This document shows positions 43,429 to 64,000 of a stretch of 64,000 bases of DNA, in pieces (the first letter of the stretch is position 1; each line of letters starts with the position of its first letter). Origin of the DNA: Pseudomonadota bacterium (lineage in GTDB: Bacteria > Myxococcota_A > Polyangia > Polyangiales > Polyangiaceae). Under the pieces are notes generated by a model that searched no databases, was not told the DNA's origin, and saw only the letters and a list, made by a program, of their open reading frames with translations. The DNA lies in assembly GCA_023432025.1 (NCBI GenBank), contig JAEYVE010000083.1:4244-68243 (forward strand), given 5' to 3'. The translations under genes and the position numbers were made by a program.

Positions 43429-43842
43429 ACGTCTCGGGCAGCGGTGTCCGCGGCGCTCGGCGCTCGGCGCTGGTGCAAAGCATCGCCGGAGCGTGCGAGC
43501 GCGCGAGGCGAGGGGAGCCCATGCACCTGGGGGGCATTTCCACGGCGAGTCTCCCGAGGCGCCCGGCGTGACGTCTCGCCCGAGCCACGCGACGTGATTC
43601 GTAGAGGCCACGGCGGGGATCGCTGGCTCCCCAAGGCAGCGACGTACAGGGAGAAATGGACTGGGGAAAACTTGGTGAAACAGTTGTTTCGACCCCGTCA
43701 AAGTCGCGAATTTCTAAGGGGGAACAGAGAATTCAAGAATTTCCCCAGCGGACCGAAAGCCAAGACCATTTACTAGGTGGAAGCCTTCCAGATACTAGCT
43801 TGTTGCTACCTGGGCGAAGTGCCCTCGGTGGGCCGGAGCACC

Positions 43843-48300: not shown

Positions 48301-49198
48301 GGTCAAGCTCGCGCAGAAGCTCGAGGCTGCGCTCGGCGCCAAGGTGCCTCTGGGGCTCTTGTTCGAGGCGCCGACGGTGCGCGGCTTGGCCGAAGCGCTC
48401 GGTGGGCAAGCCTCTCTGCACGCGCGACCGCGCGTAGTGGTGCTCCGTCGCGGCACGTCGGACGAGGCGCTCTTCTGCGTGTACGGTGTGGCGCTCTATC
48501 AGCACGTGGCGCGCTCGCTTCCCGAGCACCTCACCGTGTACGGGGTGTTCATCCCCACGGAAACCGAGATTTTCGAGCAAGAAAAGCTGCAAAAGGGGGA
48601 TTTTTCGTTCCCCGGTGTGGCCGAGCTCGCCAGGCAGTACGTCAGCATCATGACGGAGGTGCAGCCGAAGGGCCCTTACCGCGTGATGGGCATCTCCTTC
48701 GGCGGGCTGGTGGCCTACGAAATCGCGAGGCAGCTGCGCGCTCTCGGGCAAGAAGTCGTGTTCCTGGGCCTCTTGGACGCGCTGCTTCCGAGCTCCATCC
48801 AGGAGTCGGGCCTTCGGCGTTGGGGTCGTCAGCTCAAGACCTTCGTCGCGGACGCGGACGGGCGTCAGGTGGTGCTTCGGGCGCTGCGCGCCAAGGTGGG
48901 GCGCGTGTCGCCTGAGCCCTTCTCCGAGCGGCAACTGACCTGGCTGCGCGACAGGGTTCATGACCAACAAATCGCTCACTACGCCAAGGAGCTGCCGGAC
49001 TACCCGGGGGACGCGGTCATCGTTCGCGCCACGGATCACTCCGAGTACGGGACGGCCGTCGTGGACGCAGGCGCCGGGTGGCGCGAGCGCGTTCGAGGCA
49101 GCGTAGCCGAGTACGACGTGCCCGGGCGACACCTCGAAATCGTGGAGCCACCGAGCTCGGACATTTTGGCGAAAATGCTGAGCGCGCACCTCGCGTGA
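45377..49198 (+). CDS. Single-module NRPS: condensation-like domain (degenerate active site), A (Gly-predicted), PCP, TE
   Basis: A-domain cores are LTYAALEE, LAYVIFTSGSTGRPKGV, SFDIAGLE, NMYGPTETT, YRTGDL, GRVDFQVKIRGYRIELGDIE and NPSGKIDR. The PCP motif is FFDMGGTSL and the TE motif is GISFGG. The C-domain His motif reads LPRAACDAES instead of HHxxxDGxS. Confidence 0.95.
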   Translation: MTSSVLPDQQRNLLACQLAADARAFSVWVALSLRGAVDVPRLVRAVQKVRLRHTALHAYLDDVVDPPSVRFDVEAASAPIEVVNVSEQSLSDWLESGLGERFDPRAAWSRVRIGRFADESYGLLIALPRAACDAESTALLYRDLVHAYDDEDASFGSSLADFVTARAVSESAALADTLGRLSGELPPLELPLAAPRPALFSHRGRTVRRTLGADTLAELGVLAERHGVLVDDVILTVFLATLQRYSNQEEFVVATAARPTAWEGVGPNETVCVLRAFVAATTSFESALSSVSEAARAARVSAVVSFQSLVDGLSVSRDPSRTPLFQAGFEREARLRARSAKDGVVFEPLRLSNTGARTDLTLLFSEEEAGLELALEYAEDSYAASWAEDFLGSCALGLTACSAHVSAPTGQLPLLTPEQTALAFLPYEARAYDETQPAFVRLGEHARRTPDRVAVLLGEQSLTYAALEESANRLAHRLRRHGVGPESLVGVYCERSLDMVVALLAAHKAGGAYVPLDPTHPRTRVEAILEDAAPRVVVTQRALRAQCPVSPETTLIDADAEDLGQEPATAPELDVRPDGLAYVIFTSGSTGRPKGVEITHRAFTNFVHSMAHAPGLAPEDRILSVTTLSFDIAGLELLLPIYVGASVEIADRPTCINAERLAQRLSDPAVTLLQATPATFRMLVESGWPGSARLRVLCGGEAFPPDLVDALLRRTSQVWNMYGPTETTVWSTLQRLTDDRPPIRIGRPVDNTSIYVLNPCGQPVPRGSIGELWIGGDGVARGYRARPDLTAERFITDGFRSEPGARMYRTGDLGRVLADGTLECLGRVDFQVKIRGYRIELGDIETALMKVPGVREAVVVAREDRPGDKRLVAYFVGDATQATLRASLGEVLPSYMVPAVFVPMDALPLNPSGKIDRRALPVPAEAPSAAQEGVVEAVKDDTEATIRAVFADVLGVPSVDSTSSFFDMGGTSLMSVKLAQKLEAALGAKVPLGLLFEAPTVRGLAEALGGQASLHARPRVVVLRRGTSDEALFCVYGVALYQHVARSLPEHLTVYGVFIPTETEIFEQEKLQKGDFSFPGVAELARQYVSIMTEVQPKGPYRVMGISFGGLVAYEIARQLRALGQEVVFLGLLDALLPSSIQESGLRRWGRQLKTFVADADGRQVVLRALRAKVGRVSPEPFSERQLTWLRDRVHDQQIAHYAKELPDYPGDAVIVRATDHSEYGTAVVDAGAGWRERVRGSVAEYDVPGRHLEIVEPPSSDILAKMLSAHLA

Positions 49199-49331: not shown

Positions 49332-49383
49332 CGAACGGCCGCGGGCGCGGCGCCGTTCAAACGGCCGCGGGCGCGGCGCCGTT
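49332..49383. repeat. 26-bp tandem duplication (25/26 identical) spanning the stop codon of the minus-strand membrane glycosyltransferase gene
   Basis: c[g/a]aacggccgcgggcgcggcgccgtt occurs at 49332-49357 and 49358-49383. The stop codon (tca on the plus strand, 49357-49359) sits at the copy junction. Confidence 0.85.
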
Positions 49384-50622
49384 GTCGGGGCGAGCGCGAA
49401 GCGCTCCGCGCGCGTCGCGCAGCCACGCGCCACACGTGAGAAGCACCAGAAGGAGCGTGAAGACGGGCCCGAGCGTTCCGACGCCCAGCTTGTCGCCGAG
49501 CACGGGTGCACGCGACGCGAAGGCGACCAAGAGGACGATGCTTGCGCCGAGCCAGCCGGGGCGCAGCGTGTAAGCCGCGAAGACGAGCGGCGTGAGAATG
49601 ACCAGATCGTAGCCATGGAGCGGCACGAACGCGGCGGTGAGCGCGCAAGCGATGGCCGCGTGCCACAGCGGGCTCACGAGCTCGGGAGCTCGCTGCTGGC
49701 GCAGCCGGAAGTGGACCGCCGCGAAGCCCAGCGCTAGCAGCGGGCCAAACAGCAAAGTGACGGACGCGAGCGGCCCGAGGCTGGCCAGCAAGGACGAAAG
49801 GCTGAAGAACTCGCCGGGCGCGTTGAAGCCGATGTCCATGTGCAGCCGGTAGCTCTCTGCGAGCTGTGCGGGGAGCTCGCCGAGGTCGACGTGGATGAGC
49901 GCAATGGCCGTGACGAGCAGTGTGGCGAGAGCGCCGCGCACGACGCCCCGAAACCCGCCCAAGAGGCACAGATACGCGAGCGGGAGAAAACCAATCTGCG
50001 GCTTGAGAGCCGCCAAGAAGGCAAACGCGGCCACCCAGTTGTCGCGCTTTTGGTGCCACGCCCAGAACGCGCCGACGACGCCCAAGAGGGGCACCATGCA
50101 CATTTGCCCCTCGAAAAACGTCCAGCGGACGGCCCCGTTCGCGGTGGCGGCCGCGACGACGAGCCACACCCCCGGATCACGAAGCGAGAAGCTTTGGCTC
50201 TGGCGGAGCCAGCGCAGCAGGATGAACAGGATGCCTGCGTAGGAGGCGACGTTCACCAAGTCCCACAGGCGGCAGGCGAGGGGCCAGTTGGCGAGCCCGA
50301 GCGGCACCGCGAAGAACGCCATGTGCGGCGGGTACATGTACGGCGCCGTGGGCGGGGTGATTTCGCTGGGCGTGGCGCCGAGGAACGACGGATGCACGTG
50401 CACCCATTGGCCACGCCACGCGACCACGTCGTACGGCACGACGCCCGTCAGCCACGTTTTCCCTGCAGCGTAGACGAACGCAAAGTCACTCCAGCCGCGC
50501 ACGAGATCCTTCAGCGGCAGGAGCGAGTAGAGCGTGACGACGACCGTCACCAACGCGGCGAGCGGGAACGCCCAGCGACGTTCGGCGGCGTCGGCGAATC
50601 GTTCTCGAAGGGAACCAAGCAT
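49357..50622 (-). CDS. Polytopic membrane glycosyltransferase-like protein (GT87/DUF2029-like)
   Basis: About 10-12 TM helices. The N-terminal loop motif SDFAFVYAAGKTWLTGVVPYD matches the D..xY.A......G..(L/P)Y pattern of GT87/DUF2029 proteins. Confidence 0.55.
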   Translation of the reverse strand: MLGSLRERFADAAERRWAFPLAALVTVVVTLYSLLPLKDLVRGWSDFAFVYAAGKTWLTGVVPYDVVAWRGQWVHVHPSFLGATPSEITPPTAPYMYPPHMAFFAVPLGLANWPLACRLWDLVNVASYAGILFILLRWLRQSQSFSLRDPGVWLVVAAATANGAVRWTFFEGQMCMVPLLGVVGAFWAWHQKRDNWVAAFAFLAALKPQIGFLPLAYLCLLGGFRGVVRGALATLLVTAIALIHVDLGELPAQLAESYRLHMDIGFNAPGEFFSLSSLLASLGPLASVTLLFGPLLALGFAAVHFRLRQQRAPELVSPLWHAAIACALTAAFVPLHGYDLVILTPLVFAAYTLRPGWLGASIVLLVAFASRAPVLGDKLGVGTLGPVFTLLLVLLTCGAWLRDARGALRARPDNGAAPAAV

Positions 50623-50733: not shown

Positions 50734-51774
50734 TCAGGCGCTGACGCTTTTGTACTCGATGATGGTGCGCGTTCGGCGGAAGGCCAGATCCAAGAACGCT
50801 CGAACCACGCCGCGCAGCTCGACGAACTTTCCGAGCACGCAGGCGGTAGCGTACGACCGTGCGACGTCGGGAGGCAAAGCACGCGCCCCGCGCAGGTACC
50901 GGTACGTCTTCACCCAGAGCAGCGGGTAGAGCAAGAGCCCCAAAAACGCGCTCGGCCCCACGATCGGGCTCGAGAGCGCGAGCGCGAGCGGCAGGCCTCC
51001 CCAGCACACGATGGAAGCCACCTGTCGAACCCAAATGCGCCGCGGGCTCCGCAAGTGGAGGGCGCAGACGAGCGCAAACGCATAGCCGGCGCGCTCGACT
51101 CGTTTCCACCACTGCGCGCGGTGCGTCATGGCGGCGTCGTGCAGCGTCATTTCGTGATCGAGCCGCACGATGCGACGACCGGTGGCGCGGATGCGGTGAC
51201 AGAGCTCGGGCTCCTCACCGGCAATGACGGTCGGGTTGAAGCCGCCGACCTCGTCGAACACCGAAGCCACCACCAGAAAATCACCGCCACACGCCGTGGC
51301 TTCACCGAGGGGAGTGTCCCATTCGACGTCACACAAGCGGTTGTAGAGGCTCGCCTCCGGAAAGCGTTCGCGCCGCCGCCCGCACACGATGGCCCAGTCG
51401 GAGTGGCGCTCGAGCTCCCGTTGGGCGACCGCGAGCCATCCGGCGTTCAGCTCGCAGTCCCCGTCGATGAATTGCACGAAGGCAACCCCGGGCGCCACCT
51501 TCCGCAAGAGCTCGAACCCGGCATTTCGGGCGCGCGCGGCACTGAAGGGGATGCTCATGTCGAGCGCGACGACGTGGGCGCCCTCCGCGCGCGCGTACGC
51601 CGCGCTGCCGTCCGTGGAGCCCGAATCCACGTAGACGACGGTCGACGCGTTCTGCTGCACGCTGGCCAAGCAGCGTTTCAGCCGCTCGCCCTCGTTTCTG
51701 CCGATGACGACGACTGCTACCGACGGATGCGGACCATCGTTCGGAGGTTCTGCGTTCGAAGATTCTGCGTTCAT
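50734..51774 (-). CDS. Family 2 glycosyltransferase with C-terminal TM helices
   Basis: VAVVVIGRNEGERLKRCLASV, VVYVDSGSTDGS, ARNAGF and FIDGDCEL (DxD) are present. ATG at 51774 within ORF 50734..51873. Confidence 0.8.
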   Translation of the reverse strand: MNAESSNAEPPNDGPHPSVAVVVIGRNEGERLKRCLASVQQNASTVVYVDSGSTDGSAAYARAEGAHVVALDMSIPFSAARARNAGFELLRKVAPGVAFVQFIDGDCELNAGWLAVAQRELERHSDWAIVCGRRRERFPEASLYNRLCDVEWDTPLGEATACGGDFLVVASVFDEVGGFNPTVIAGEEPELCHRIRATGRRIVRLDHEMTLHDAAMTHRAQWWKRVERAGYAFALVCALHLRSPRRIWVRQVASIVCWGGLPLALALSSPIVGPSAFLGLLLYPLLWVKTYRYLRGARALPPDVARSYATACVLGKFVELRGVVRAFLDLAFRRTRTIIEYKSVSA

Positions 51775-52012: not shown

Positions 52013-53308
52013 ATGCCTACGCTGCCTCAGGATCCCATTCGACCGCCGTTGCGTGTCGCTTACCTCGTCAATCACTACCCCAAGGTGAGCCACAGCTTCA
52101 TCCGGCGTGAAATCCTGGCGTTGGAGAGACAGGGCGTGGAGGTCGAGCGAATTTCCGTGCGCGGCGCGGGCGACTCCCTCGTGGATCCGGAGGACCAGAG
52201 GGAGCAACGGCGCACGCGCTACGTGCTCGCGCGTGGTCCGCTCTATTTGCTTTGGGCAGCGTTCGTTTTCGCGCTGCGCCGGCCCGGCAAGGCGCTGTCG
52301 GGTTTGCGCCTCGCGCTGGCTTTGTCCCGCCGCTCGGATCGCTCGCTCGCGCATCATTTGATTTACCTCGCGGAGGCTTGCCTCGTCGTGTCGTGGCTGG
52401 CGCGCGCGCGCGTCACGCACCTGCACGCGCACTTCGGAACGAACCCTGCGGAGGTGGCGCTCTTGATTCACGCGCTCGGCGGGCCGTCGTTCAGCTTCAC
52501 CGTGCACGGCCCGGAAGAGTTCGACAAGCCGGAGTTTCTGGCGCTAAAGCGCAAGATCGAGCACGCGCGCTTCGTCGTCGCGATCAGCTCGTATGGTCGT
52601 AGCCAGCTGTCGCGCTGGATTGATCCTCTCGACTGGAAAAAGATCCAAATCGTGCACTGCGGCTTGGAGCCGGCCTTCCACGAGCTCCCCGCCCAAGCCG
52701 TGCCGCCCGCGCCGCGCTTCGTTTGTGTGGGTCGCCTCTGCGAGCAAAAGGGACAGCTCGTGGCGCTCGAGGCCGTGGCGCTCTTGAAGCAGCGCGGCGT
52801 GGCCTGCGAGCTGGTGCTCGCCGGAGACGGAGAAATGCGGCAGGCCGTCGAGCAGCGCCGTGACGAGCTGGGCATCGGTGATCGCGTGCGTATCACGGGC
52901 TGGCTCTCGAGCTCGGCCGTGCGCGACGAAATCTTGGCGTCGCGTGCGCTCGTCATGCCGAGCTTCGCAGAAGGGCTCCCCGTGGCCATCATGGAGGCGA
53001 TGGCGCTCAGGCGCCCGGTCGTGTCCACGTACGTCGCGGGCATTCCCGAGCTGGTGCGTCCTGCGCTGGAAGGTTGGCTCGTGCCGGCCGGAGACGTGGC
53101 GGCGTTGGCCGAGGCGATGGAACGCGTGGCCACGGCCGCGCCGGACGAGCTGGAGCGTATGTCGGCTTCGGCGCGTAGCCGCGTTCTGCAGCGGCACGAC
53201 GTGGACCAAGAAGCGACGCGGCTCCGGCTCTTGTTCTCGGGGCAGTCGCCGGCAGCTCGTACGTGGGACGACCCGCCGAAACCGGACGAAAACGTCTTCG
53301 CCGCGTGA
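52013..53308 (+). CDS. GT-B fold glycosyltransferase (GT4, WcaL-like)
   Basis: RVAYLVNHYPKVSHSFIRREI at the N-terminus, and a C-terminal E-x7-E region PSFAEGLPVAIMEAMALRRPVVST. ATG at 52013 within ORF 51704..53308. Confidence 0.85.
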   Translation: MPTLPQDPIRPPLRVAYLVNHYPKVSHSFIRREILALERQGVEVERISVRGAGDSLVDPEDQREQRRTRYVLARGPLYLLWAAFVFALRRPGKALSGLRLALALSRRSDRSLAHHLIYLAEACLVVSWLARARVTHLHAHFGTNPAEVALLIHALGGPSFSFTVHGPEEFDKPEFLALKRKIEHARFVVAISSYGRSQLSRWIDPLDWKKIQIVHCGLEPAFHELPAQAVPPAPRFVCVGRLCEQKGQLVALEAVALLKQRGVACELVLAGDGEMRQAVEQRRDELGIGDRVRITGWLSSSAVRDEILASRALVMPSFAEGLPVAIMEAMALRRPVVSTYVAGIPELVRPALEGWLVPAGDVAALAEAMERVATAAPDELERMSASARSRVLQRHDVDQEATRLRLLFSGQSPAARTWDDPPKPDENVFAA

Positions 53309-53339: not shown

Positions 53340-54332
53340 TCAGCTCGCTCGAAACTGCTCGAGGAGTCGGCGCGCCGCGGAGGTGGGCGCTACCTGGCCC
53401 TCGCGCACCTCGGTTTCCACGGCATCGAGACGAGACGCCACGCTCGGGTGCTCCCGAAACTGACTTTCGAGCTCGGCCCGCACCAGGTCCCAGAGCCACG
53501 CGAGCGCTTGCTCGCGGCGCTTGTCGTGAAAAGCGCCGGAGCGCTTCGCCGAGTCGACGAAACGCTCCACGCGGGCCCACAGCTCCGGAAGGCCGGTCTT
53601 GGACAGCGCGCTCAGCGTGAGCACCTCGGGGGCCCACGTGTGCTCGCCGACGCTCCGCGTGGCGCCGAAGAGGCGCAGCGCGCCTTCGAGCTGTGACACC
53701 GCGCGGCGCGCCGCGGATTCGTCCAAGTCAGCCTTGTTGACGACGATGAGGTCGGCGAGCTCGACCACGCCCTTTTTCATCGCCTGCAGGTCGTCTCCGG
53801 CGTTGGGCAGCTGCAGCAGCAAGAAGAGATCCGTCATCGTCGCGACGGCCGTCTCCGACTGCCCCACGCCGACCGTCTCGACCAGTACGACGTCGTAGCC
53901 GGCAGCTTCGAACGCCAGCATGCTCTCTCGCGTTTTGGCGGCGACGCCGCCCCACGTGCCCGCGGACGGGCTCGGGCGGACGAAAGCGGCGGGGTGCACG
54001 CTGAGCTGCTCCATGCGTGTTTTGTCGCCCAAAATGGCGCCGCCGGAGCGGGCGGACGAGGGATCGATGGCAAGAACGGCGACCTTGTGCCCGCGCTCGA
54101 CCAACCACAAACCGAACGCCTCGATGAACGTGGATTTGCCGGCGCCCGGCACGCCCGACACGCCGATGCGGAGCGACTTGCCCGAGTGCGGCGTGAGCAG
54201 TGCGAGCACCGCGTCTGCCCGCTTTCGATGATCCGCGCGGGTGGACTCGAGCAGCGTCACGACCTTGGACAGGGCGCGCCGCTCTCCGCGCAAAACGCGC
54301 GCGGCGAGCTCGGAGTCGGAAGGCTGCGTCAC
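53340..54332 (-). CDS. meaB: Methylmalonyl-CoA mutase-associated GTPase MeaB/ArgK
   Basis: GVSGVPGAGKSTFIEAFG, AIDPSSARSGGAILGDKTRM, ETVGVGQSE and VVNKADL are present. Confidence 0.9.
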   Translation of the reverse strand: MTQPSDSELAARVLRGERRALSKVVTLLESTRADHRKRADAVLALLTPHSGKSLRIGVSGVPGAGKSTFIEAFGLWLVERGHKVAVLAIDPSSARSGGAILGDKTRMEQLSVHPAAFVRPSPSAGTWGGVAAKTRESMLAFEAAGYDVVLVETVGVGQSETAVATMTDLFLLLQLPNAGDDLQAMKKGVVELADLIVVNKADLDESAARRAVSQLEGALRLFGATRSVGEHTWAPEVLTLSALSKTGLPELWARVERFVDSAKRSGAFHDKRREQALAWLWDLVRAELESQFREHPSVASRLDAVETEVREGQVAPTSAARRLLEQFRAS

Positions 54333-54336
54333 GGGC

Positions 54337-56526
54337 TCAGCCTTCCGTGAGGTGCTCTCGGATGCGCGCGAGCACGTCTTTTGCGCTCGCCGGAATGGGC
54401 GTGCCCGGACCGTAAATGCCCTTCACGCCCGCTGCGTACAGCTCCGCGTAGTCCTGCTGGGGAACGACCCCACCCACGAACACGACGATGTCCTCGGCGC
54501 CTTCGCGGCGCAGCGCTTCGAGCAAAGCGGGGACGAGCGTCTTGTGGCCGGCGGCGAGGGTGCTGACGCCGATGGCGTGCACGTCGTTTTCGATGGCCTG
54601 GCGCGCGCACTCTTCGGGCGTTTGAAAGAGCGGCCCGATGTCCACGTCGAACCCGAGATCCGCGAACGCGGTGGCCACGATTTTGGCGCCGCGATCGTGA
54701 CCGTCCTGACCCAGCTTGGCGACGAGCACGCGCGGCTGGCGGCCTTGCTCTCGGGCGAAGGTCGCGATTTCTCCGCGGAGTTGGTCGAGACCTTCGGGCG
54801 TGTCGTAAGCCGTGGCGTACACTCCGGTCACCTTCTGCGTATTGGCGCGGTAACGGCCATAAACCTCTTCGAGCGCGGCGCTGACCTCACCTACGGTAGC
54901 GCGGCTCCGCATGGCCACGATCGAGAGCTCGAGCAGGTTGCCGCTGCCGCTCTCGGCGGCTCGCGTGAGGGTCGCGAGCGCCTCTTCGACGGCTTTTCCG
55001 TCGCGGCTCCGGCGGAGCTCAGCCAAGCGTTCGATTTGGCTGCGGCGCACGGCGTGGTTGTCGATCACGCGCACGTCGATTTCGTCTTCCTCAGCGAGCT
55101 TGTACTTGTTCACGCCGACGATGACGTCCTTGCCGGAGTCGATGCGCGCCTGCTTTTCCGCGGCGCTGGCTTCGATCTTGAGCTTGGCCCAGCCGGTCTC
55201 GACGGCGCGCGTCATGCCGCCCAGTCGGTCGACTTCCGCGATGATTTCCCAGGCTTTGTCGGCCATGTCCTGCGTGAGCCGCTCCATCATGTAGCTGCCC
55301 GCCCACGGGTCCACGACGCTCGTGATGTGGGTTTCCTCTTGCAGGATGAGCTGGGTGTTGCGAGCGATGCGCGCGCTGAACTCGGTGGGCAGCGCGATGG
55401 CCTCGTCCAGCGCGTTGGTGTGAAGGCTCTGCGTGCCGCCGAAGATGGCCGCCATCGCCTCCACCGTGGTGCGCACCACGTTGTTGTACGGGTCCTGCTC
55501 GGCCAAGCTGAAGCCCGACGTTTGGCAGTGCGTGCGCAGCATCAGGCTCTTGGGGCTCTTGGCCCCGAACTCCGTCATGATTTTCCACCAGAGCAGACGC
55601 GCCGCGCGCATCTTGGCGATCTCGAGGTAGAAGTTCATGCCGATCGCCCAAAAGAAGCTGAGGCGCCCGGCGAACGCGTCCACGTCCAGCCCCTTGGCGA
55701 GGGCAGTCTTCACGTACTCCTTGCCGTCCGCCAAGGTGAGCGCAAGCTCCAGCGCTTGGTTCGCGCCGGCTTCGTGCATGTGGTAGCCGGAGATCGAAAT
55801 CGAGTTGAACTTCGGCAGCTCTTTGGCGCAGTACTCGATGATGTCGCCCACGATGCGCATGGACGGCGCAGGCGGGTAAATGTACGTGTTTCTGACCAAA
55901 AACTCCTTGAGAATGTCGTTCTGAATCGTGCCGGAGAGCGCGCGTCTTTCGACGCCCTGCTCCTCCGCGGCCACGATGTAAGAAGCCAGCACGGGCAAGA
56001 CCGCGCCGTTCATCGTCATCGACACCGACACCTTGTCGAGCGGGATCCCGTCGAACAGGACCTTCATGTCGAGCACGCTGTCTATCGCAACGCCCGCCTT
56101 GCCGACGTCGCCTTCCACGCGCGGGTGATCGCTGTCGTAGCCGCGGTGCGTGGCCAAATCGAACGCCACGCTCACGCCTTGGCCGCCGGCGGCCAGCGCC
56201 TTTCGGTAGAAGGCGTTGGACGCTTCCGCCGTGGAGAACCCCGCGTACTGACGCACGGTCCACGGGCGCACCGTGTACATCGTGGCTTGTGGCCCGCGCA
56301 CGTACGGGGGAAAGCCCGGCAGCGTGTCGATGTGCTCGAGCCCTTCGACGTCCGCCCGCGTGTAGAGCGGATGCACGACGATGCCCTCGGGCGTGACCCA
56401 GTCGAGCGCTTCGAGCTTTCCGCCGGGCGCTGACTTTTGGGCGGCGGCCCGCCACGTTTCGATGGACTCGGAGCTCGGAAGTTCGGTTTTCGACATCGAT
56501 TGCTTGGCTCGTTCGTTGGCGGCCAT
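54337..56526 (-). CDS. Methylmalonyl-CoA mutase, single-chain catalytic subunit with a B12-binding domain
   Basis: [57 protein letters not shown], and a C-terminal [15 protein letters not shown] (DxHxxG). Confidence 0.95.
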
Positions 56527-56740: not shown

Positions 56741-57610
56741 ATGTCGTCATTCGTTTGCGCACTGATGGGTCAGGGACCTCAGCTGATTGCCTGCGCGGAG
56801 GTCCTGCTCGCGCGAGGCCACCGCATCTCTCGCGTCGTGTCGGACTGTGCGGAGGTCACCGCCTGGACGCAGAAGAAGGGCCTCGCGCGCATCGGGACGA
56901 AGGAAAACCCCGCCGATTCGCTGGCGCAGGAGCCGTTCGACTACTTCTTCAGCATCGTCAACCACGCCATCACGCCGCCCGAGGTGCTCGCGCTGCCACG
57001 CCGGGGCGCCATCAATTATCACGACTCACGTTTGCCCGCGTACAGCGGCTTCAACGCCACGTCGTGGGCCATTTTGGACGGTCAAAGCGAGCACGGCATC
57101 ACCTGGCACCGCATGACGGCGGACGTCGACGCGGGCGCGGTGCTCGTGCAGCGCACCTTCGCCATCGGCGACGAGGACACGGCATTTGCGCTCGCGGCTC
57201 GTGCGAGCGAGGTGGCGGTGCGTTCCTTCGGGGAGCTCCTGGACGGGTTGGAAAAGGGGTCGCTCGTCGAGGAGCCGGCCCGTCCAGCCGAAAACTTCCA
57301 CTTCAAGTCGGAGCGCCTCGGCTTTTCCGTCGTGGATCCGCGTGCCACGACGCTCGAAATCCAGCGTTTGGTGCGTGCCTTGGACTTCGGTCCCGAGGAG
57401 AGCTGGCTGAGCCGCCCCAAGCTGCAAACGCCCAGCGGCGCCTTCATCGCGGTGGGCGCCGTCGCCCCCGGCTCCTCTCACGGCGCCCCGGGCACGCTTC
57501 ACCGCGCCAGCGCCGAGGCCCTCGAGCTTTCCGTCGCGGACGGCAGCCTGGTTTTGTCCGATTTGGCGACGCTCGAAGGCGAGCCGCTCTCGGCGGAGCA
57601 GCTCGGTGCT
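56741..57610 (+). other. Formyltransferase-like domain of the NRPS (aa 1 to about 290)
   Basis: AINYHDSRLPAYSGFN (NxH...LPxxxG) with Asn92/His94, and Asp130 in TADVDAGAV, at the same spacing as the Fmt catalytic Asn/His/Asp. Confidence 0.75.
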
Positions 57611-60600
57611 CTCGGCTTGGTCGCGGGTGCGACGTTGTCGTCGCCGCCCACCGAGCTCGCGGACGCCGCGCGGGAGCTCGACCGACGTGTGACGAAGCGA
57701 GAGCGCTCCTGGGTCTCACGCCTTTCGAGCGTGGCGGCGCCCACGCTGAGCGAGCTCCGTGCGCATGCGAGCGGCGGGAGCGTAGAGCGAGTTTCGGTCG
57801 CGCTTCCGTCGGCTTGGGCTTCGCGCGCTCCCGAAGAGCGACGTGCGCTCGGCGTCACGGCGCTCGCTGCCTACTTGGCGCGGGTCGGGGAAGACGTGTT
57901 CCGCGTGAGCTTGGGCCTCACGGCGCCGTCGCTCGCGGCGGAGCTCCACTCGCTCTACGCGAGCGTGGTCCCGCTGTCGCTCGACATTTCCACCGAGCTG
58001 ACCCTGGCCGAGGCGCTCGGTCGCGTCACGAAGGAGCTGGAGTCGGCGCGCGAGCGCGAGACGTACGCGCGCGACGTGTGGACGCGCTACCCGTCGCTCC
58101 GCTCCGTCGCCAAGAGCGAACGCGAGCTGCCCATCGTGGTTTCGTTCGGCCGAGGGGAGCCGAGCGCGCTGCCGAGCGGCGCGCGGCTGCTGGTTCAGTT
58201 GCCGGAAGAAGGGGGCGAGCTTTCGCTGGTCTGGGATTCGGCCGCGCTCTCGCGCGTTCACGCCGAGCGCTTGGCGGAGCGCCTGGCGCATGTGGTGGGG
58301 CTCGTGGCGGCGGACGACGCGAGCGCACGCCTCGATTCGTTCTCCATCGTGACGCCCGGGGAAACCAGCCTGCTTCTCGAGACGTTCCAGAACACCTCGC
58401 GACCCGCCGCGGAAATCGCCTGCATTCACCGCTTGTTCGAGGCTCAGGTGGCGCGCACGCCGGACAAGACGGCGGTGGTGTTCCGGGACCGGAGCCTCAC
58501 GTACCGTGAGCTCGACGCGCGCGCGAACGCGCTCGGCCGAGAGCTGCAGAGCCGCGGCGTGGGTCCGGACTCGCTCGTCGCCATCTCCATCGAGCGTTCG
58601 CTCGACATGGTGGTGGGCCTGCTCGCCATTTTGAAGGCGGGCGGCGCCTACGTTCCTCTGGACCCGGCGTACCCCGCGGAGCGCCTCTCCATCATGCTCG
58701 AGGACTCCGGCGCACGGCTGCTCCTCACGCAGAGTCATCTCACCAAACAAATCCCTCACCACGGCGCGGAGCTCATCCTGGTGGACGGCCCGCGCGAGGG
58801 GGCGTCGGGCGAGCCGCTCTCGAGCGACGTACGGCCGGGGCACCTCGCGTACGTGATTTTCACGTCCGGTTCGACGGGGCGTCCGAAGGGCGTGATGGTC
58901 GAGCACCGGAACGCCGCGAACTTCTTCGCGGGCATGGACGAGCGCGTGGGCACCGAGCCCGGCGTTTGGCTCGCCGTCACCAGCATTTCCTTCGACATTT
59001 CGGTCTTGGAGCTGTTCTGGACGCTGACGCGCGGCTTCGAGGTCGTGATTCAGGAGGAAGGAGACCGCGCGTCGCTGCTCAAGTCGCAGAGCCGCGTGCG
59101 TGTCTCGAGCAAGCCGATGGACTTCGGCTTGTTCTACTTCGCCGCGGATAGCTCCACGGCGCCCCAGGGCAACGCCTACCGCCTCCTGCTGGAGGGGGCG
59201 CGCTTCGCCGATACGCACGACTTTACCGCGGTGTGGACGCCGGAGCGGCATTTCCACGCCTTCGGTGGTTTGTACCCGAACCCGGCCGTCACGTCGGCGG
59301 CCATCGCGGCCGTGACGTCGCGCGTCGCGCTGCGCGCTGGCAGCGTCGTGATCCCTCTGCACGATCCCATCCGCGTCGCGGAGGAGTGGGCCGTGGTGGA
59401 CAACCTGTCGAACGGTCGCGTGGGGCTTTCGTTCGCCTCCGGTTGGCACGCCAACGACTTCGCGCTCAAGCCGGAGAACTACGAGCGGCGCCGCGAGGTG
59501 ATGCAGGAGTCGATCGAAACCGTCCTCAAGCTGTGGGCGGGCGAGAAAATTCGCGTCAAAAACGGCAGCGGTCAGGAGATCGAGGTGGGCGTCTTGCCGC
59601 GCCCCGTGCGGCAGAGGCCGCCCATGTGGATCGCCTCCGCGGGCAACGTCGACACGTTCAAGGCCGCAGGTCGCCTCGGCTACAACGTCCTCACGAACAT
59701 GCTCGGTCAGGACATCAAGGACCTGGGCAACAAGTTCGCGGCCTATCGCGAGGCGCGCCGCGAGGCGGGCCACGAGGGCGAAGGAATCGTGTCGGTCATG
59801 CTCCACACGTTCGTGACGGACGACGACGACAAGGCGCGGGAGCTCGCGCGGGGGCCCTTCGGCAACTATTTGAAGAGCTCGTACGATCTGGTGAAGGTCG
59901 CGCCGTGGATGTTCCCGGCGTTCAAGCAGCCGTCGCTCGGTGAGGGCAGCACCTCAGCCTTCGATCCCAGCCGCTTCGACGAGAGCGACATGGCGGCGCT
60001 CCTGGATCACGCGTTCGACCGCTACTTCGACACGGCGGGTCTCTTCGGCACGCCCGAGCGCGCGCTCGCCCTCGTCGAACAGTTGAAGGAAATCGGCGCG
60101 ACCGAGGTGGCGTGCTTGATCGACTTCGGCATCGAGCCCGACGTGGTGCTCGAGAACCTGGTGCACCTGGACGAGCTCCGTCGCCTGGCCAACTCCGGCT
60201 CGGAAATGGCGCACTCCGGCGTCGCGCTCGTCGACACGTCGGCGCCCGTCACCATTCGCGAGCAGTTCGAGCGCCGCCAAATCACGCATTTTCAGTGCAC
60301 GCCGTCGATGGCGCGCATGATCGTGGCGGACGGCACCGTGAGCGCCATGCGCTCGCTCGAGCGTCTCCTCTTGGGTGGAGAGGCGCTGCCGGCGGATCTC
60401 GCGGACAAGCTGCGCCAAGAGCTGCCCGACACCACGCTGCTCAACATGTACGGACCGACCGAAACCACGGTTTGGTCGACCACCGCGGCGATCACGAGTG
60501 AGGACATCACCATCGGCACGCCCATCGCCAACACGCAGATCCGCATCTTGGATCGCAAGCTGGGCCTCGCGCCGCTCGGTACACCGGGCGAGCTGTGCAT

Positions 60601-62617
60601 CGGTGGCTGGGGCGTCGTGCGCGGCTACCTGGGCAAGCCGGAGCTGACCGCGGAGCGCTTCGTTTCGGACCCGTACCTCGCGGACAACCGCCTGTATCGA
60701 ACGGGAGATCTCGCTCGCTTCCGCGACGACGGGCAGCTCGAGTACATCGGCCGCATCGACCAGCAGGTGAAGGTCAACGGGTACCGCATCGAGCTCGGAG
60801 AAATCGAGACGATCTTGGGTCGTCACCCGGCGGTGAAGGAAGCCGTGGTCGCGGTGAAAGAAGGCGCGGTGGGCCCCGAGCTCGTGGGCTACGTCATCGC
60901 GGGCGGAGACACGTCCAAGGAAGCCGCGACGCCGGACGTCACGACCTGGCAGGAGCGTTGGGACGAGGCGTACTCCAAGCGCGCCGGCGCGAGCGACGCG
61001 CCCGTGCGCTTCGACACGTCCGGCTGGCTCGACAGCTACACCGGCACGCCCATCGCCACCGAGCAGATGAAGGAGTGGCTGGACCAAACCATCGAGCGCA
61101 TCTTGGCGCTGAAGCCGCGCCGCGTGCTCGAAATTGGCTGCGGCACCGGCATGATCCTCTACCGCACGCTGCCGCACGTCGAGCACTACACCGCGGTGGA
61201 TCTGTCGCCCCACGCGCTCGAAACCATCCGCAAGGAGCTGGACACGAACGAGCGCGCCAAGGTGACCTTGCTCAACAAGGCCGCTCACGAGCTGGACTCC
61301 ATCGCGGACGGCAGCGTCGATCTCGTGATCATCAACTCCGTGGCGCAGTACTTCCCGAGCGCGGACTACCTGGTGTCCGTGCTCGAGCGCGCGGGTCGCG
61401 CGCTCGAGCCAGGCGGCAAAATCTTCCTGGGCGACGTGCGGAGCTTGGAGGAGCTGCGCCACTTCCACGCCTTGGTCGAAATCGAAAAGGCTCCGGGGCA
61501 AAGCACGCGAGACGCGCTCCGCGCGCGCATCGCCGAGCGCGTGGAGCTCGACACCGAGCTCACGCTCGGTACCGGGTTCTTCGCGGCGCTCGGGAGTCGC
61601 GCGCCGCGTCTGTCGCTCGCTTCGATTCAGCTGAAGCGCGGGGTGCACTCGAACGAAATGCGCGACTTCCGTTCGGACGTCGTGCTCACGGCGGGCGCGG
61701 AAGTGCGGGAGCTGGCCCCAAGCGAGGTGCGCACGCTTTCCGCTCCGGACAGCGTGGGCCTCGTGCGCGAGCTGCTTTCGGAACAGCCGCCGGCGCTGCT
61801 CCTGACGGGCTTTGCGAACGCGCGAATCGGGCGAGCCATCGACGTCTTGGAGCGCCTCACGCAGGGCGGTCCGGAGCTCACCGCCGACGAGCTGCGGCAG
61901 GCGTCCGCGGCGGCGCGAGGCGTGGATCCCAACGAGCTGTTCGAGCTTTCGGGTTACGACGTCGAGATTCGCTTCGGGGAAAAGCCGGGCACCTTCGACG
62001 CCTTGCTGCGGAGGCGCGGCGCGGCGCCCGACGGCGTGTGGCCGGCCCGTTCAGGGACCGGACCTACCGCCAGCACGCCTCACGCCACGCTGTCTGCCGA
62101 CACGCTTATCCCCAAACTCAAGGCGCACCTGAAGGACTTCTTGCCCGAATACATGGTGCCTCAGTCCTTCGTGCTCATGAGCGCCTTCCCGCTCACGCCG
62201 AACGGCAAGATCGACCGCAAGGCGCTGCCCAAACCCGCCGAGCAGCCGCGCCGCACGGCGACCGAGTACGTCATCCCCTCCAACGAGCTGGAGCGCACCA
62301 TCGCCGATATTTGGCGTGAAATGCTGGGGGTGGAGCGCGTCGGTCGCAAGGACAACATCTTCGACTTGGGCGCCAGCTCGCTGCTCACCGTCGAGGCGAA
62401 CAACCGACTGCAGAACGTGCTCGGCAAGAAAATCCCGCTCGTCACCATGTTCCGCTACCCGACCATCGAGAGCCTCGCCGCGCATTTGGGCAAGCTGCTC
62501 GACCCGCAGCCGAGCGGAGACGCGTCCTCTTCGGCTTCGAACGCCGAGCAGGAGCGTCAAGCGCGCCTCGCCGCGGCGGCGGATCGCCGCAGGCGCGCGC
62601 GCTCTCAAGCCAGCTGA
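56741..62617 (+). CDS. NRPS loading-type module: formyltransferase-like domain, C-terminal half of a condensation domain, a Gly-predicted A domain carrying two embedded domains (luciferase-like monooxygenase, methyltransferase), then PCP
   Basis: See the sub-features below. A cores are LTYRELDA, LAYVIFTSGSTGRPKGV, SFDISVLE, [insert], NMYGPTETT, YRTGDL, GRIDQQVKVNGYRIELGEIE, [insert] and NGKIDRKALP. The PCP motif is IFDLGASSLL. An SD-like GGAG lies 12 nt before the ATG at 56741. Confidence 0.95.
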   Translation: MSSFVCALMGQGPQLIACAEVLLARGHRISRVVSDCAEVTAWTQKKGLARIGTKENPADSLAQEPFDYFFSIVNHAITPPEVLALPRRGAINYHDSRLPAYSGFNATSWAILDGQSEHGITWHRMTADVDAGAVLVQRTFAIGDEDTAFALAARASEVAVRSFGELLDGLEKGSLVEEPARPAENFHFKSERLGFSVVDPRATTLEIQRLVRALDFGPEESWLSRPKLQTPSGAFIAVGAVAPGSSHGAPGTLHRASAEALELSVADGSLVLSDLATLEGEPLSAEQLGALGLVAGATLSSPPTELADAARELDRRVTKRERSWVSRLSSVAAPTLSELRAHASGGSVERVSVALPSAWASRAPEERRALGVTALAAYLARVGEDVFRVSLGLTAPSLAAELHSLYASVVPLSLDISTELTLAEALGRVTKELESARERETYARDVWTRYPSLRSVAKSERELPIVVSFGRGEPSALPSGARLLVQLPEEGGELSLVWDSAALSRVHAERLAERLAHVVGLVAADDASARLDSFSIVTPGETSLLLETFQNTSRPAAEIACIHRLFEAQVARTPDKTAVVFRDRSLTYRELDARANALGRELQSRGVGPDSLVAISIERSLDMVVGLLAILKAGGAYVPLDPAYPAERLSIMLEDSGARLLLTQSHLTKQIPHHGAELILVDGPREGASGEPLSSDVRPGHLAYVIFTSGSTGRPKGVMVEHRNAANFFAGMDERVGTEPGVWLAVTSISFDISVLELFWTLTRGFEVVIQEEGDRASLLKSQSRVRVSSKPMDFGLFYFAADSSTAPQGNAYRLLLEGARFADTHDFTAVWTPERHFHAFGGLYPNPAVTSAAIAAVTSRVALRAGSVVIPLHDPIRVAEEWAVVDNLSNGRVGLSFASGWHANDFALKPENYERRREVMQESIETVLKLWAGEKIRVKNGSGQEIEVGVLPRPVRQRPPMWIASAGNVDTFKAAGRLGYNVLTNMLGQDIKDLGNKFAAYREARREAGHEGEGIVSVMLHTFVTDDDDKARELARGPFGNYLKSSYDLVKVAPWMFPAFKQPSLGEGSTSAFDPSRFDESDMAALLDHAFDRYFDTAGLFGTPERALALVEQLKEIGATEVACLIDFGIEPDVVLENLVHLDELRRLANSGSEMAHSGVALVDTSAPVTIREQFERRQITHFQCTPSMARMIVADGTVSAMRSLERLLLGGEALPADLADKLRQELPDTTLLNMYGPTETTVWSTTAAITSEDITIGTPIANTQIRILDRKLGLAPLGTPGELCIGGWGVVRGYLGKPELTAERFVSDPYLADNRLYRTGDLARFRDDGQLEYIGRIDQQVKVNGYRIELGEIETILGRHPAVKEAVVAVKEGAVGPELVGYVIAGGDTSKEAATPDVTTWQERWDEAYSKRAGASDAPVRFDTSGWLDSYTGTPIATEQMKEWLDQTIERILALKPRRVLEIGCGTGMILYRTLPHVEHYTAVDLSPHALETIRKELDTNERAKVTLLNKAAHELDSIADGSVDLVIINSVAQYFPSADYLVSVLERAGRALEPGGKIFLGDVRSLEELRHFHALVEIEKAPGQSTRDALRARIAERVELDTELTLGTGFFAALGSRAPRLSLASIQLKRGVHSNEMRDFRSDVVLTAGAEVRELAPSEVRTLSAPDSVGLVRELLSEQPPALLLTGFANARIGRAIDVLERLTQGGPELTADELRQASAAARGVDPNELFELSGYDVEIRFGEKPGTFDALLRRRGAAPDGVWPARSGTGPTASTPHATLSADTLIPKLKAHLKDFLPEYMVPQSFVLMSAFPLTPNGKIDRKALPKPAEQPRRTATEYVIPSNELERTIADIWREMLGVERVGRKDNIFDLGASSLLTVEANNRLQNVLGKKIPLVTMFRYPTIESLAAHLGKLLDPQPSGDASSSASNAEQERQARLAAAADRRRRARSQAS
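57668..58405 (+). other. C-terminal lobe of a condensation domain without the N-terminal lobe or His motif (aa about 310-555)
   Basis: ERSWVSRL..., TALAAYLARVGEDVFRVSLG, YASVVPLSLDISTELTLAEALGRV and LSLVWDSAALSRVHAERLAERLAHVV follow the order of C-domain motifs downstream of HHxxxDG. No HHxxxDG is found anywhere upstream. Confidence 0.5.
59108..60190 (+). other. Luciferase-like (FMN-dependent) monooxygenase domain embedded between A4 and A5 (aa about 790-1150)
   Basis: MDFGLFYFAAD...YRLLLEGARFADTHDFTAVWTPERHF...GGLYPNPAV..., PLHDPIRVAEEWAVVDNLSNGRVGLSFASGW and GTPERALALVEQLKEIGATEVACLIDFG match the LLM fold pattern. It is flanked by SFDISVLE upstream and ITHFQCTPS downstream. Confidence 0.8.
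60923..62110 (+). other. SAM-dependent methyltransferase domain embedded between A8 and A9/A10 (aa about 1395-1790)
   Basis: WQERWDEAYS...FDTSGWLDSYTGTPIATEQMKEWLD, then motif I RVLEIGCGTGMIL and DLVIINSVAQYFP. This is the position and pattern typical of NRPS-embedded N-methyltransferases. Confidence 0.8.
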
Positions 62618-62677: not shown

Positions 62678-64000
62678 ATGGAACCAAAGAACACCGAGCC
62701 CACGTCTGCGCCGAATGAAGGCGCATCGGATGAGTCCCTGGACATCGCCATCGTCGGTATGGCGGGCCGCTTCCCCGGCGCCAAGAACATCGACGAGTTC
62801 TGGACCAATCTGGTTTCGGGCAAGGAGTCCATCCGCGTCCTCACGGACGAGGAGCTACTGCGAGCGGGCGTTCCGCGCCGCGAGTTCGAGCACCCCGACT
62901 ACGTGCGGGCGTGTCCGGTGCTCGAGGACATCGACAAGTTCGACGCAGCCTTCTTCGGCTTGAGCCCGCGCGACGCGTCCGTGATGGACCCGGCGCACCG
63001 CTTCTTCTTGGAGGTGGCGTGGGAGGCGCTCGAGCACTCAGGCAACACGGGTTTGCCCCAAGAGGGGCGCGTGGGCGTGTGGGCGGGCTCCGGCGCGCCG
63101 CTCTACTGGATGAACAACGTCCGCACGCACCGCGAAATCATGGAGTCCATGGGGGAGTTCCTCGTTCGCCACACCGGCAACGACATGAACTTCCTGGCGA
63201 CGCGCGCGTCCTACGATCTGGATCTGCGCGGTCCGAGCGTAAACGTGCAGACGGCGTGCTCGTCGGCGCTCGTGGCGGCGCACATGGCGCGTCAGAGCCT
63301 CTTGGCGCGGGAGTGCGACATGGCGCTCATCGGCGGCTCGACCATCGTCGTGCCGATGGGCCACGGCTACCACTACAAGGAGGGAGAGATTCTCTCACCG
63401 GACGGCCACTGCCGCCCCTTCGATCACAGGAGCGCCGGCACCGTCTTCGGCAGCGGCACGGCGTGCCTGGTGCTGAAGCGCCTCACGGACGCGCTGGACC
63501 ACGGCGACACCATCTACGCCGTCATCAAGGGCTCGGCCATCAACAACGACGGCTCCGTCAAGGTGGGGTACCTGGCGCCGGGCGTGGAAGGGCAAGTGGA
63601 CGCCATTCGAGAGGCGCTCAAGGCGTCGCGTCTCTCGGCGCGCGACATCGGCTACGTGGAGGCGCACGGCACCGGTACCAGCGTGGGCGACCCCATCGAG
63701 CTCACGGCGCTCGATCAAGCGTTCTCCGAGCAAACGTCGGACAAGCAGTTCTGCGGCGTCGGTTCGGTCAAGTCGAACATTGGCCATTTGGGAGAGGCGG
63801 CCGCGGGTGCCTCGTTGATCAAGGTGGCGCTCGCGCTGAAGAACAAAAAGATCCCGCCGAGCCTCGGCTACGAAAAGCCGAACCCGCGCTTCCCGCTGGA
63901 GGAGAGCCCGTTTTTCGTGAATGCCAGCTTGCGTGAGTGGGACGGCGACGGTCGCCCGCTGCGCGCCGGCATCACGGCGCTCGGCGCCGGCGGCACGAAC
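62678..64000 (+). CDS. Type I polyketide synthase, N-terminal ketosynthase domain (3'-truncated by the window edge)
   Basis: The frame is open from ATG 62678 to the window end and is not listed in the ORF track. Motifs are DIAIVGMAGRFPGA, PSVNVQTACSSALVA (Cys codon 63257-63259), VEAHGTGTSVGDPIE and SVKSNIGHLGEAAG. Confidence 0.9.
   Translation, partial: MEPKNTEPTSAPNEGASDESLDIAIVGMAGRFPGAKNIDEFWTNLVSGKESIRVLTDEELLRAGVPRREFEHPDYVRACPVLEDIDKFDAAFFGLSPRDASVMDPAHRFFLEVAWEALEHSGNTGLPQEGRVGVWAGSGAPLYWMNNVRTHREIMESMGEFLVRHTGNDMNFLATRASYDLDLRGPSVNVQTACSSALVAAHMARQSLLARECDMALIGGSTIVVPMGHGYHYKEGEILSPDGHCRPFDHRSAGTVFGSGTACLVLKRLTDALDHGDTIYAVIKGSAINNDGSVKVGYLAPGVEGQVDAIREALKASRLSARDIGYVEAHGTGTSVGDPIELTALDQAFSEQTSDKQFCGVGSVKSNIGHLGEAAAGASLIKVALALKNKKIPPSLGYEKPNPRFPLEESPFFVNASLREWDGDGRPLRAGITALGAGGTN

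Follow-up and report, generated by a model that had tools for sequence, protein, structure and literature searches.

Closest described systems

Nonribosomal peptide synthetases (NRPSs) may carry tailoring enzymes inside their adenylation (A) domains or a formyltransferase (F) domain at their head, and both features meet in a 1958-aa NRPS encoded on a 64,000-nt stretch of DNA from a Polyangiaceae genome (GenBank assembly GCA_023432025.1, contig JAEYVE010000083.1, positions 4,244 to 68,243; hereafter the window). On balance, this protein appears to be the loading module of a two-protein line, NRPS followed by polyketide synthase (PKS), that belongs to a widespread orphan cluster family associated with glycosyltransferases (GTs). 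What is new is the combination of two known A-domain interruptions and a formylating head in one loading module.

Flavin monooxygenases acting on glycine have been described in several lines. In MtaG (myxothiazol) and MelG (melithiazol), a glycine A domain is interrupted by the monooxygenase between a4 and a5, and hydroxylation is followed by carbinolamide cleavage, whereas in SolF it is found at a8-a9 and the alpha-hydroxyglycine is kept in solanimycin B (PMC10204066). FbnE of fabrubactin is described as a flavin monooxygenase making alpha-hydroxycarboxylates, and MxgE of myxoglucamide was assigned an alpha-hydroxylation. In all these cases, the glycine nitrogen is acylated. The support given by the palmerolide and myxoglucamide papers is limited to alpha-oxidation by related monooxygenases. 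The window NRPS shares with MtaG and MelG the glycine A domain and the flavin monooxygenase at a4-a5, for which alpha-hydroxylation of an N-acylated glycyl thioester on the peptidyl carrier protein (PCP) is proposed. However, MtaG and MelG are terminal modules that are led by a condensation (C) domain and release an amide, whereas the window protein is an F-led starter devoid of a catalytic C domain, carries an additional methyltransferase (MT) and precedes a PKS. A model that had read this DNA from its letters alone (hereafter the sequence-only reading) had named the a4-a5 monooxygenase of MtaG and MelG, in agreement with the literature (PMC10204066). A link to fabrubactin through the family name MupA/Atu3671 was also considered and was discarded, as nothing is in common beyond the monooxygenase family.

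Interruption by methyltransferase (M) domains was catalogued in 2020 by Lundy et al., who considered M domains alone and defined seven families of interrupted A domains, all of them M-domain interruptions; family 7, with M domains at a2-a3 and a6-a7 in three sequences, was presented as the first natural di-interruption (PMC8341866). The window A domain resembles family 7 in having two insertion sites, but its inserts belong to two enzyme classes, a luciferase-like monooxygenase (LLM) at a4-a5 and an MT at a8-a9, instead of two M domains. This combination is absent from the 2020 catalogue with its scope of M domains only (PMC8341866), and no description of an A domain di-interrupted by LLM and MT was found in the literature searched. 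Its a8-a9 half is closest to TioS(A4aM4A4b) of family 1 (A8MbA9), with a type I backbone N-methyltransferase of the same position, boundary, size and S-adenosylmethionine (SAM) motif. Unlike the window protein, which adds the LLM at a4-a5, TioS is interrupted once and uses a different substrate.

Regarding formylating loaders, LgrA also places an N-terminal formyltransferase ahead of A-PCP, but its F domain is distant from that of the window NRPS, and it contains neither a relic C-terminal lobe of a C domain nor LLM and MT inserts. The N-formylglycine loaders of oxazole polyketides such as conglobatin and phthoxazolin may be of a comparable type. The mycalolide loader MylA, described as A(Gly)-FT-MT (FT, formyltransferase), gives N-formyl-N-methylglycine and heads a PKS-NRPS line reported to contain 22 ketosynthase (KS) domains (bioRxiv 10.1101/2024.12.29.630706). 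MylA and the window NRPS have the glycine A domain, the formyltransferase and the N-methyltransferase in common, and differ by the order A-FT-MT, the lack of a monooxygenase and the long multimodular line of MylA as against a PKS of one module.

Domain anatomy of the loading module

The NRPS and its parts are located as follows.

56741..62617, plus strand: NRPS loading-module gene, ATG start, 1958 aa (open reading frame list and translation)
56741..57640, plus strand: formyltransferase domain, aa 1-300, with an N-terminal catalytic and a weak Formyl_trans_C-like subdomain (Pfam)
57659..58420, plus strand: relic condensation C-terminal lobe and C-A linker, aa ~307-560 (profile against C domains of the PDB)
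58421..59110, plus strand: N-terminal part of the A domain, motifs a1-a4, code residues D752/I753/L756 (AMP-binding; alignment)
59111..60193, plus strand: luciferase-like FMN monooxygenase (LLM), aa 791-1151, between a4 and a5 (PF00296; TIGR04020)
60233..60910, plus strand: middle part of the A domain, a5-a8, code residues Q1185/L1210/G1212/M1236/V1244/W1245 (second AMP-binding stretch; TIGR01733)
60911..62125, plus strand: class I SAM methyltransferase (MT), aa ~1391-1795, between a8 and a9 (Methyltransf_12/25/11)
62126..62245, plus strand: C-terminal piece of the A domain, a9-a10, K1823 (PNGKIDR invariant)
62297..62488, plus strand: PCP, with the phosphopantetheine-attachment Ser1880 at nt 62378-62380 (PF00550, E=2e-12; S1880 invariant)

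Hence the order along the protein is F, relic C-lobe, A(a1-a4), LLM, A(a5-a8), MT, A(a9-a10), PCP. Pfam models matched Formyl_trans_N (66-160), Bac_luciferase (793-1121, E=4e-50), Methyltransf_12/25/11 (1441-1573), AMP-binding (566-777, model positions 1-243) with a second, C-terminal AMP-binding stretch, AMP-binding_C (from 1354) and PP-binding (1853-1916). According to NCBIfam, residues 795-1147 correspond to TIGR04020, the MupA/Atu3671 family of FMN-dependent LLMs (483 bits, cut-off 244), and residues 1174-1370 match TIGR01733. The LLM is bounded by a4 (FDIS, 751-754) and a5 (NMYGPTE, 1235-1241), and the MT follows a8 and precedes a9/a10 (PNGKIDR, K1823). The open reading frame, the domain order and both insertion sites that the sequence-only reading had put forward were thus recovered by the Pfam and NCBIfam models and by the motif positions in the translation. 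These assignments of anatomy and family are held with high confidence.

The specificity code of the A domain is DILQLGMVWK (D752, I753, L756, Q1185, L1210, G1212, M1236, V1244, W1245 and K1823), the ten residues being those that had been extracted by eye. The canonical glycine code is DILQLGLIWK, so that the code is glycine-like. Conservation was read from 16 aligned full-length homologues (43-70% identity), in which the code residues are invariant except for a V/I variation at 1244. In this alignment, N92 and H94 of the F domain, the SAM motif E1464-G1466-G1468-G1470 and the carrier residue S1880 are likewise invariant, and D130 of the F domain is at least 90% conserved. To judge from these motifs, none of the three tailoring domains (F, LLM and MT) looks like a decayed relic. 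Besides, a protein identical to the window NRPS (P0001) is encoded on a 162-kb metagenome scaffold, of which the window is an exact piece.

Formyltransferase head and relic condensation domain

The F domain matches PF00551 with E about 2e-18 to 2e-17. PF02911 (Formyl_trans_C) reached E=0.08 in the window NRPS and was significant in homologues. The closest solved relatives are sugar N-formyltransferases, namely the GDP-perosamine formyltransferase 5VYT (3e-23) and ArnA (4e-20), and the F domain of LgrA is only a distant one (2e-8).

The half C domain that had been proposed behind F was detected at the profile level, although no Condensation match was obtained with Pfam in the window NRPS, even at E<=1. 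Indeed, a profile of aa 296-566 built from 13 homologues matches the C-terminal lobes of C domains, i.e., residues 185-433 of the 434 residues of 7c1k, as well as TomBC 338-536 and LgrA 1016-1221. Moreover, the homologues P0072 and P0079 match positions 189-336 (above the Pfam cut-off) and 401-456 of the Condensation model, respectively. From these profile and homologue matches, aa ~307-560 are what is left of a condensation domain, namely its C-lobe with the C-A linker. Judging from the sequence, the N-lobe bearing HHxxxDG is gone and the formyltransferase stands in its place. F is not joined directly to A, as ~250 aa of relic C-lobe separate them. A PDB search with the single sequence of aa 161-565 returned weak matches to oxalate decarboxylase and ribosomal protein (E ~0.003-0.3), which were taken as chance.

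This N-terminus of F plus relic C is widespread, with 1214 clusters (50% identity) at E<=1e-30, most of them aligned over residues 3-555. It is also found in abundant insert-free F-A-PCP proteins of ~1180 aa.

Embedded methyltransferase and monooxygenase

The closest solved relative of the MT is TioS A4-M4 (5WMM), with E=3e-39 over 324 aa. Type I M domains have 390 +/- 21 aa, the boundary L(V/A/I)(A/G)(Y/F)xxx and a GxGxG motif (PMC8341866), and the MT agrees with this description by its ~405 aa, its boundary LVGYVIA and its motif VLEIGCGTG. Because of this similarity to TioS and of the type I features, N-methylation is far likelier than O-methylation. For the LLM, the closest solved relative is PuwE (6KET, E=1e-100), and in the literature searched, domains of this sort are assigned a hydroxylation alpha to a thioester bound to a carrier.

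Partner polyketide synthase

A KS-first PKS immediately downstream had been announced, and the gene was found to start at the 61st nucleotide past the NRPS stop, i.e., after a spacer of 60 nt, with a product that begins with a KS domain.

62678..64000, plus strand: partner PKS gene, 5' end, cut by the window end (contig extension; Pfam; catalytic motifs)
L001:17558-18457, beyond the window: AT domain of the partner PKS
L001:21593-22510, beyond the window: TE of the partner PKS

The contig extension (L001), identical to the window in their overlap, gives the full PKS as one 2191-aa cis-AT module composed of KS (aa 22-398), acyltransferase (AT, 546-828), ketoreductase (KR, 1177-1371), dehydratase (DH, 1394-1670), acyl carrier protein (ACP, 1772-1836) and thioesterase (TE, 1891-2058). 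Its catalytic residues are present: the KS cysteine in QTACSS with HGTGT and NIGH, AT GHSMG, the KR tyrosine, the DH histidine with HPxxLD, and the TE nucleophile. Within the core family, the AT motif (V/I)AAHS occurs in 42 of the 46 aligned PKSs.

Concerning the TE, a cysteine nucleophile (AGLCAGG) is shared by the window PKS, where it is C1963, its two closest relatives (L085 and L003) and the PKS of Sphingobium Leaf26 (L072). A serine is found in the other TE-bearing PKSs of the family that were aligned, in the motif G(F/Y)SGGG or, in L009, GFSMGG. Cysteine TEs have elsewhere been linked to strained-ring release.

Distribution of the cluster family

The architecture search covered 5.8 billion proteins, grouped in clusters at 90% identity. 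The full architecture was found in ~70 further clusters (1915-1996 aa, 42-69% identity, same Pfam set), the named carriers being deltaproteobacterial and Polyangiales metagenome-assembled genomes (MAGs), Hyphomonas/Hyphomonadaceae (with the orthologues P0040 and P0057), unclassified Alphaproteobacteria and Vicinamibacterales. A starter with three tailoring functions, of which the sequence-only reading had recognised no other example, is therefore not unique at the sequence level, but no characterised example was found in the literature searched. A second and larger group (~1550 aa) has the same architecture minus the MT. In addition, C-A(LLM)(MT)-PCP modules with a full C domain occur in a Polyangiaceae MAG, a Pedosphaera MAG and Streptomyces aureus NRRL B-2808.

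L027:3896-12043: C-A(LLM)(MT)-PCP module (Streptomyces aureus NRRL B-2808)
L007:8456-14290: C-A(LLM)(MT)-PCP module
L008:5392-11076: C-A(LLM)(MT)-PCP module

At the sequence level, there are thus further A domains with different enzyme classes at both insert positions, no example of which had been recognised in the sequence-only reading. Since C-led di-interrupted modules exist, the A(LLM)(MT) core is a recurring natural design and not the accident of one gene. Following the logic of MtaG, one may speculate that the C-led modules release C-terminal N-methylamides. In L007, a PKS of the same kind lies divergently beside the module.

Homologous loci were collected by a scan of genome contigs with the generic NRPS motifs NMYGPTET and TPNGKIDR, which yielded mostly the MT-less family and unrelated NRPSs instead of the closest relatives. 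Their architectures were sorted by domain-wise tblastn over 84 loci, taken among the matches listed in the contig scan. Among the matches listed, F-A(LLM)-PCP together with KS-AT-KR-DH-ACP-TE was found in many Rhodobacteraceae (Roseovarius, Shimia, Antarctobacter, Thalassovita, Cognatishimia and others), and the same pair in Agrobacterium sp. AGB01, Sphingobium sp. Leaf26, Comamonadaceae, Acanthopleuribacter pedis, Agarilytica, Salinivenus and a Chloroflexota MAG. Cultured carriers of the MT-less cluster include Antarctobacter heliothermus DSM 11445, Shimia marina CECT 7688, Thalassovita litoralis DSM 29506, Sphingobium sp. Leaf26 and Acanthopleuribacter pedis KCTC 12899. All homologous loci examined combine the NRPS with a PKS of this kind, split in L088 into two genes, KS-AT and KR-DH-ACP-TE. 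An arrangement of another sort is seen in a Vicinamibacterales MAG (L004:15967-25970), where a C-A module and then an MT-PCP-TE protein come after a PKS devoid of a TE. This implies that, in some lineages, the glycine-polyketide unit can be handed to another amino acid, which is methylated.

Glycosyltransferases accompany the pair. Orthologues of the GT2 that follows the window PKS are present in at least 32 loci and, among the matches listed, this gene comes right behind the PKS, in the same orientation, in 29 of the 45 loci carrying F, LLM and PKS. Polysaccharide genes are also met in the vicinity. L003 has GT4, Wzx and Wzy_C neighbours, and L087 a Wzz-type co-polymerase, GT2s, a sulfotransferase, Wzx and GT8. 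In L002, which carries the MT-containing form in a 4.58-Mb genome, a flippase gene stands between those of the NRPS and the PKS.

L002:15785-17236, minus strand: Wzx-type flippase, opposite in strand to the NRPS and PKS genes

In L002, L086 and L087, the gene immediately upstream of the NRPS encodes a phosphopantetheinyl transferase (PPTase), and L003 has a PPTase gene ~5 kb upstream, on the other strand.

A conserved cluster of NRPS/PKS, glycosyltransferase and PPTase genes was reported in 28 of 57 Roseobacter genomes and was uncharacterised in 2015 (PMC4337385). Our Rhodobacteraceae loci match it by gene content, the level at which this paper, which gives neither domain architecture nor accession, allows comparison. 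It is somewhat probable that this Roseobacter cluster is the MT-less form of the window cluster family. The Rhodobacteraceae loci and the window cluster both include F, relic C-lobe, A(LLM) and PCP, a KS-AT-KR-DH-ACP-TE PKS with an orthologous GT2 after it, and orthologues of the GT2 and GT4 found upstream of the window NRPS. In contrast to the window, the Roseobacter form has no MT insert, has the gene order PKS-GT2-NRPS and includes a PPTase, which is not found beside the window NRPS. Between the two, the NRPS domains are ~31-59% identical depending on the domain, and the PKSs ~38%. No product assignment and no characterised member of the cluster family were found in the literature searched.

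Proposed function and alternatives

From the domain anatomy, motif integrity, family distribution and synteny, which were observed directly, we infer a substrate, a reaction order, the fate of a carbinolamide and a glycoconjugate end product. The A domain would activate glycine and load it on Ser1880 of the PCP. The type I MT at a8-a9 would N-methylate the glycyl-S-PCP, and the N-terminal formyltransferase would cap the amine, with N10-formyl-tetrahydrofolate as donor. Next, the LLM at a4-a5 would hydroxylate the alpha-carbon of the N-acylated glycyl thioester. In this scheme, the formyl group would be the N-acyl substituent, a role played by the upstream peptide in MtaG, MelG and SolF. Indeed, a starter module has no upstream acyl group, so that the N-acyl substituent required by the LLM may come from the formyltransferase; such a supply would also account for the co-occurrence of F and LLM in the large F-A(LLM)-PCP group. 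The product on the PCP would be an N-formyl-N-methyl-(alpha-hydroxy)glycyl starter, to be taken by the downstream KS. Since an MT with invariant SAM residues has been retained over ~70 diverged proteins, the nitrogen is probably kept in the product. The PKS would then perform one C2/C3 extension, ketoreduction, dehydration and TE release, leading to a four- or five-carbon unsaturated acid bearing the modified amino group. This acid may later be hydrolysed off, close a lactone with the former alpha-hydroxyl or be transferred to a sugar. For this chemistry, our confidence is about even, moderate at most. The conservation of GT2 and GT4 with the pair, and the polysaccharide machinery of many loci, suggest that the small acyl product is finally glycosylated, or else joined to a glycan or glycolipid; this glycoconjugate end product is put forward with low confidence. 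The full scenario, in which an N-methyl-N-formyl-alpha-hydroxyglycine starter tailored three times by a new class of di-interrupted A domain is extended by the PKS, and the acyl unit installed with the help of GT2/GT4 on a Wzx/Wzy-type glycan or glycolipid, is rather doubtful.

Several observations weigh against this proposal. Every chemical step is drawn by analogy. The carbinolamide could collapse as in MtaG, giving glyoxylyl-S-PCP. The AT motif (V/I)AAHS is neither HAFH (malonyl) nor YASH (methylmalonyl), and the extender is not predictable from it. The KR-DH order and the KS motif QTACS(S/T) appear compatible with iterative use of the PKS. The link to glycans consists of gene neighbourhood only and is absent at L009, L010, L028 and L038. 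No PPTase gene was found in the window, nor within 10 kb on either side on this contig. Finally, Rhodobacteraceae make up most of the MT-less loci sampled, owing to the generic NRPS motifs used in the scan.

In one alternative, the module generates a glyoxylyl starter: the hydroxylated N-acylglycine collapses, N-methylformamide is lost as waste, and the glyoxylyl-S-PCP primes a 4-oxobut-2-enoyl-type electrophile. The LLM shares its a4-a5 position with the monooxygenases of MtaG and MelG, whose hydroxylation leads to carbinolamide cleavage, and F and LLM go together in the large F-A(LLM)-PCP family. However, discarding the nitrogen leaves no reason for an intact MT across ~70 diverged proteins, and solanimycin B retains its alpha-hydroxyglycine. 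We regard this starter as unlikely. The same holds for an iterative PKS that would extend the modified glycine by a long acyl chain, unsaturated or hydroxylated, from which three GTs would make a glycolipid with an N-formyl-N-methylglycine-derived end. The unusual placing of KR before DH, the lack of an enoylreductase, the atypical AT motif and the KS motif QTACS(S/T) are in line with it, as are the two or three conserved GTs and the Wzx-type flippases close by, but no feature specific to iterative PKSs was found, and in L004 the PKS devoid of a TE hands on to C-A-MT-PCP-TE like an ordinary single-pass module. Methylation of the new alpha-hydroxyl, giving an alpha-methoxy-N-formylglycine starter, is quite improbable. 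Although O-methylating M domains also occur at a8-a9 (families 2a and 2b of Lundy et al., PMC8341866) and the PCP arm could bring to the MT a hydroxyl that the LLM would have made, the similarity of the MT to the backbone N-methylating M domain of TioS extends over 324 residues (E=3e-39), and the MT has the canonical GxGxG instead of the type II motif DVGx(N/H)xG, and with ~405 aa agrees with the type I size of 390 +/- 21.

In the sequence-only reading, the protein may load the starter of a new actin-binding macrolide of the rhizopodin/tolytoxin/mycalolide class, with an N-methyl-N-vinylformamide terminus. A glycine A domain, a formyltransferase and an N-methyltransferase are indeed the set of MylA, and a KS-first PKS does come next. 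Past position 64000, however, the 10 kb of contig downstream contain a single cis-AT module with a terminal TE and, after it, GT genes, and this candidate was rejected for the window contig. Moreover, small loci of many phyla contain the same two-gene cassette, and no multimodular PKS goes with it there. The macrolide is thus extremely improbable. As for the vinylformamide chemistry, an N-formyl-N-methylglycine starter stays reasonable, but the alpha-carbon oxidation that had been deemed necessary is not needed, as MylA is described without a monooxygenase. Overall, this earlier interpretation was partly supported.

Returning to the N-formyl-N-methyl-(alpha-hydroxy)glycyl starter and its one-module PKS, a family of ~70 clusters with two enzyme classes at two sites of one A domain, and with F fused to a relic half C domain, is of interest for several reasons. 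Interrupted A domains are models for the tolerance of NRPSs to domain insertion, and F-A-PCP, F-A(LLM)-PCP, F-A(LLM)(MT)-PCP and C-A(LLM)(MT)-PCP provide an evolutionary series for study and engineering. The formyl cap may find its rationale as the N-acyl substituent for a monooxygenase embedded in a starter module. The cassette would also tie a metagenomic locus of myxobacterial type to the orphan cluster of roughly half of the sequenced Roseobacter-group genomes. The glycosyltransferases and flippases that accompany it speak for chemistry at the cell surface, and less for a diffusible antibiotic. If the proposal is true, surface glycoconjugates decorated by an NRPS-PKS line would be widespread, and so far unrecognised, in Rhodobacteraceae, Hyphomonadaceae, Myxococcota and Acidobacteriota.

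Neighbouring genes

On the 3' side of the PKS, the contig carries a GT2 gene (22 nt past the PKS stop), a gene for a 366-aa protein that belongs to no family, and a GT4 gene. For this GT2, no solved relative was obtained at E<=0.001 and the NCBIfam matches were generic only. Upstream of the NRPS, the window carries the following genes.

54337-56526, minus strand: B12-dependent acyl-CoA mutase, divergent from the NRPS (Pfam)
53340-54332, minus strand: MeaB G-protein chaperone, divergent from the NRPS (Pfam)
52013..53308, plus strand: GT4 glycosyltransferase, EpsE-like (222 bits), with homologues in 22 loci
50734..51774, minus strand: GT2 glycosyltransferase, with homologues in 18 loci (synteny)
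49357-50622, minus strand: GT87, like the mycobacterial-type membrane mannosyltransferases
45377-49198, plus strand: second NRPS, C*-A-PCP-TE, 1273 aa (Pfam)
43777-45261, plus strand: WbaP/PglC-like initiating phosphoglycosyltransferase (Bac_transf and CoA_binding_3), directly upstream of the second NRPS
40433-41641, minus strand: UDP-glucose pyrophosphorylase-like gene

The upstream GT4 is syntenic in Sphingobium Leaf26, Agrobacterium AGB01 and Rhodobacteraceae, and synteny with the window locus is closest in Sphingobium Leaf26. The MeaB and mutase pair may supply an unusual extender unit, and its membership of the cluster is uncertain; homologues of MeaB (50% identity) were found just upstream of the NRPS in only two other loci, Agarilytica L010 and L074. 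No homologue of the GT87 gene was found in any other locus examined. The second NRPS has no orthologue in the closest homologous locus, L085. Its glycine code, DILQLGMVWK, is identical to that of the loading module and its A-core is 47% identical to the A domain of the latter. Its C domain is devoid of HHxxxDG and shows ALPRAACDAES at that place.

The WbaP-like and UDP-glucose pyrophosphorylase-like genes suggest that the stretch from 43.8 to 64 kb is one glycoconjugate locus, and the WbaP-like gene and the second NRPS are possibly part of the same glycoconjugate locus as the loading module.

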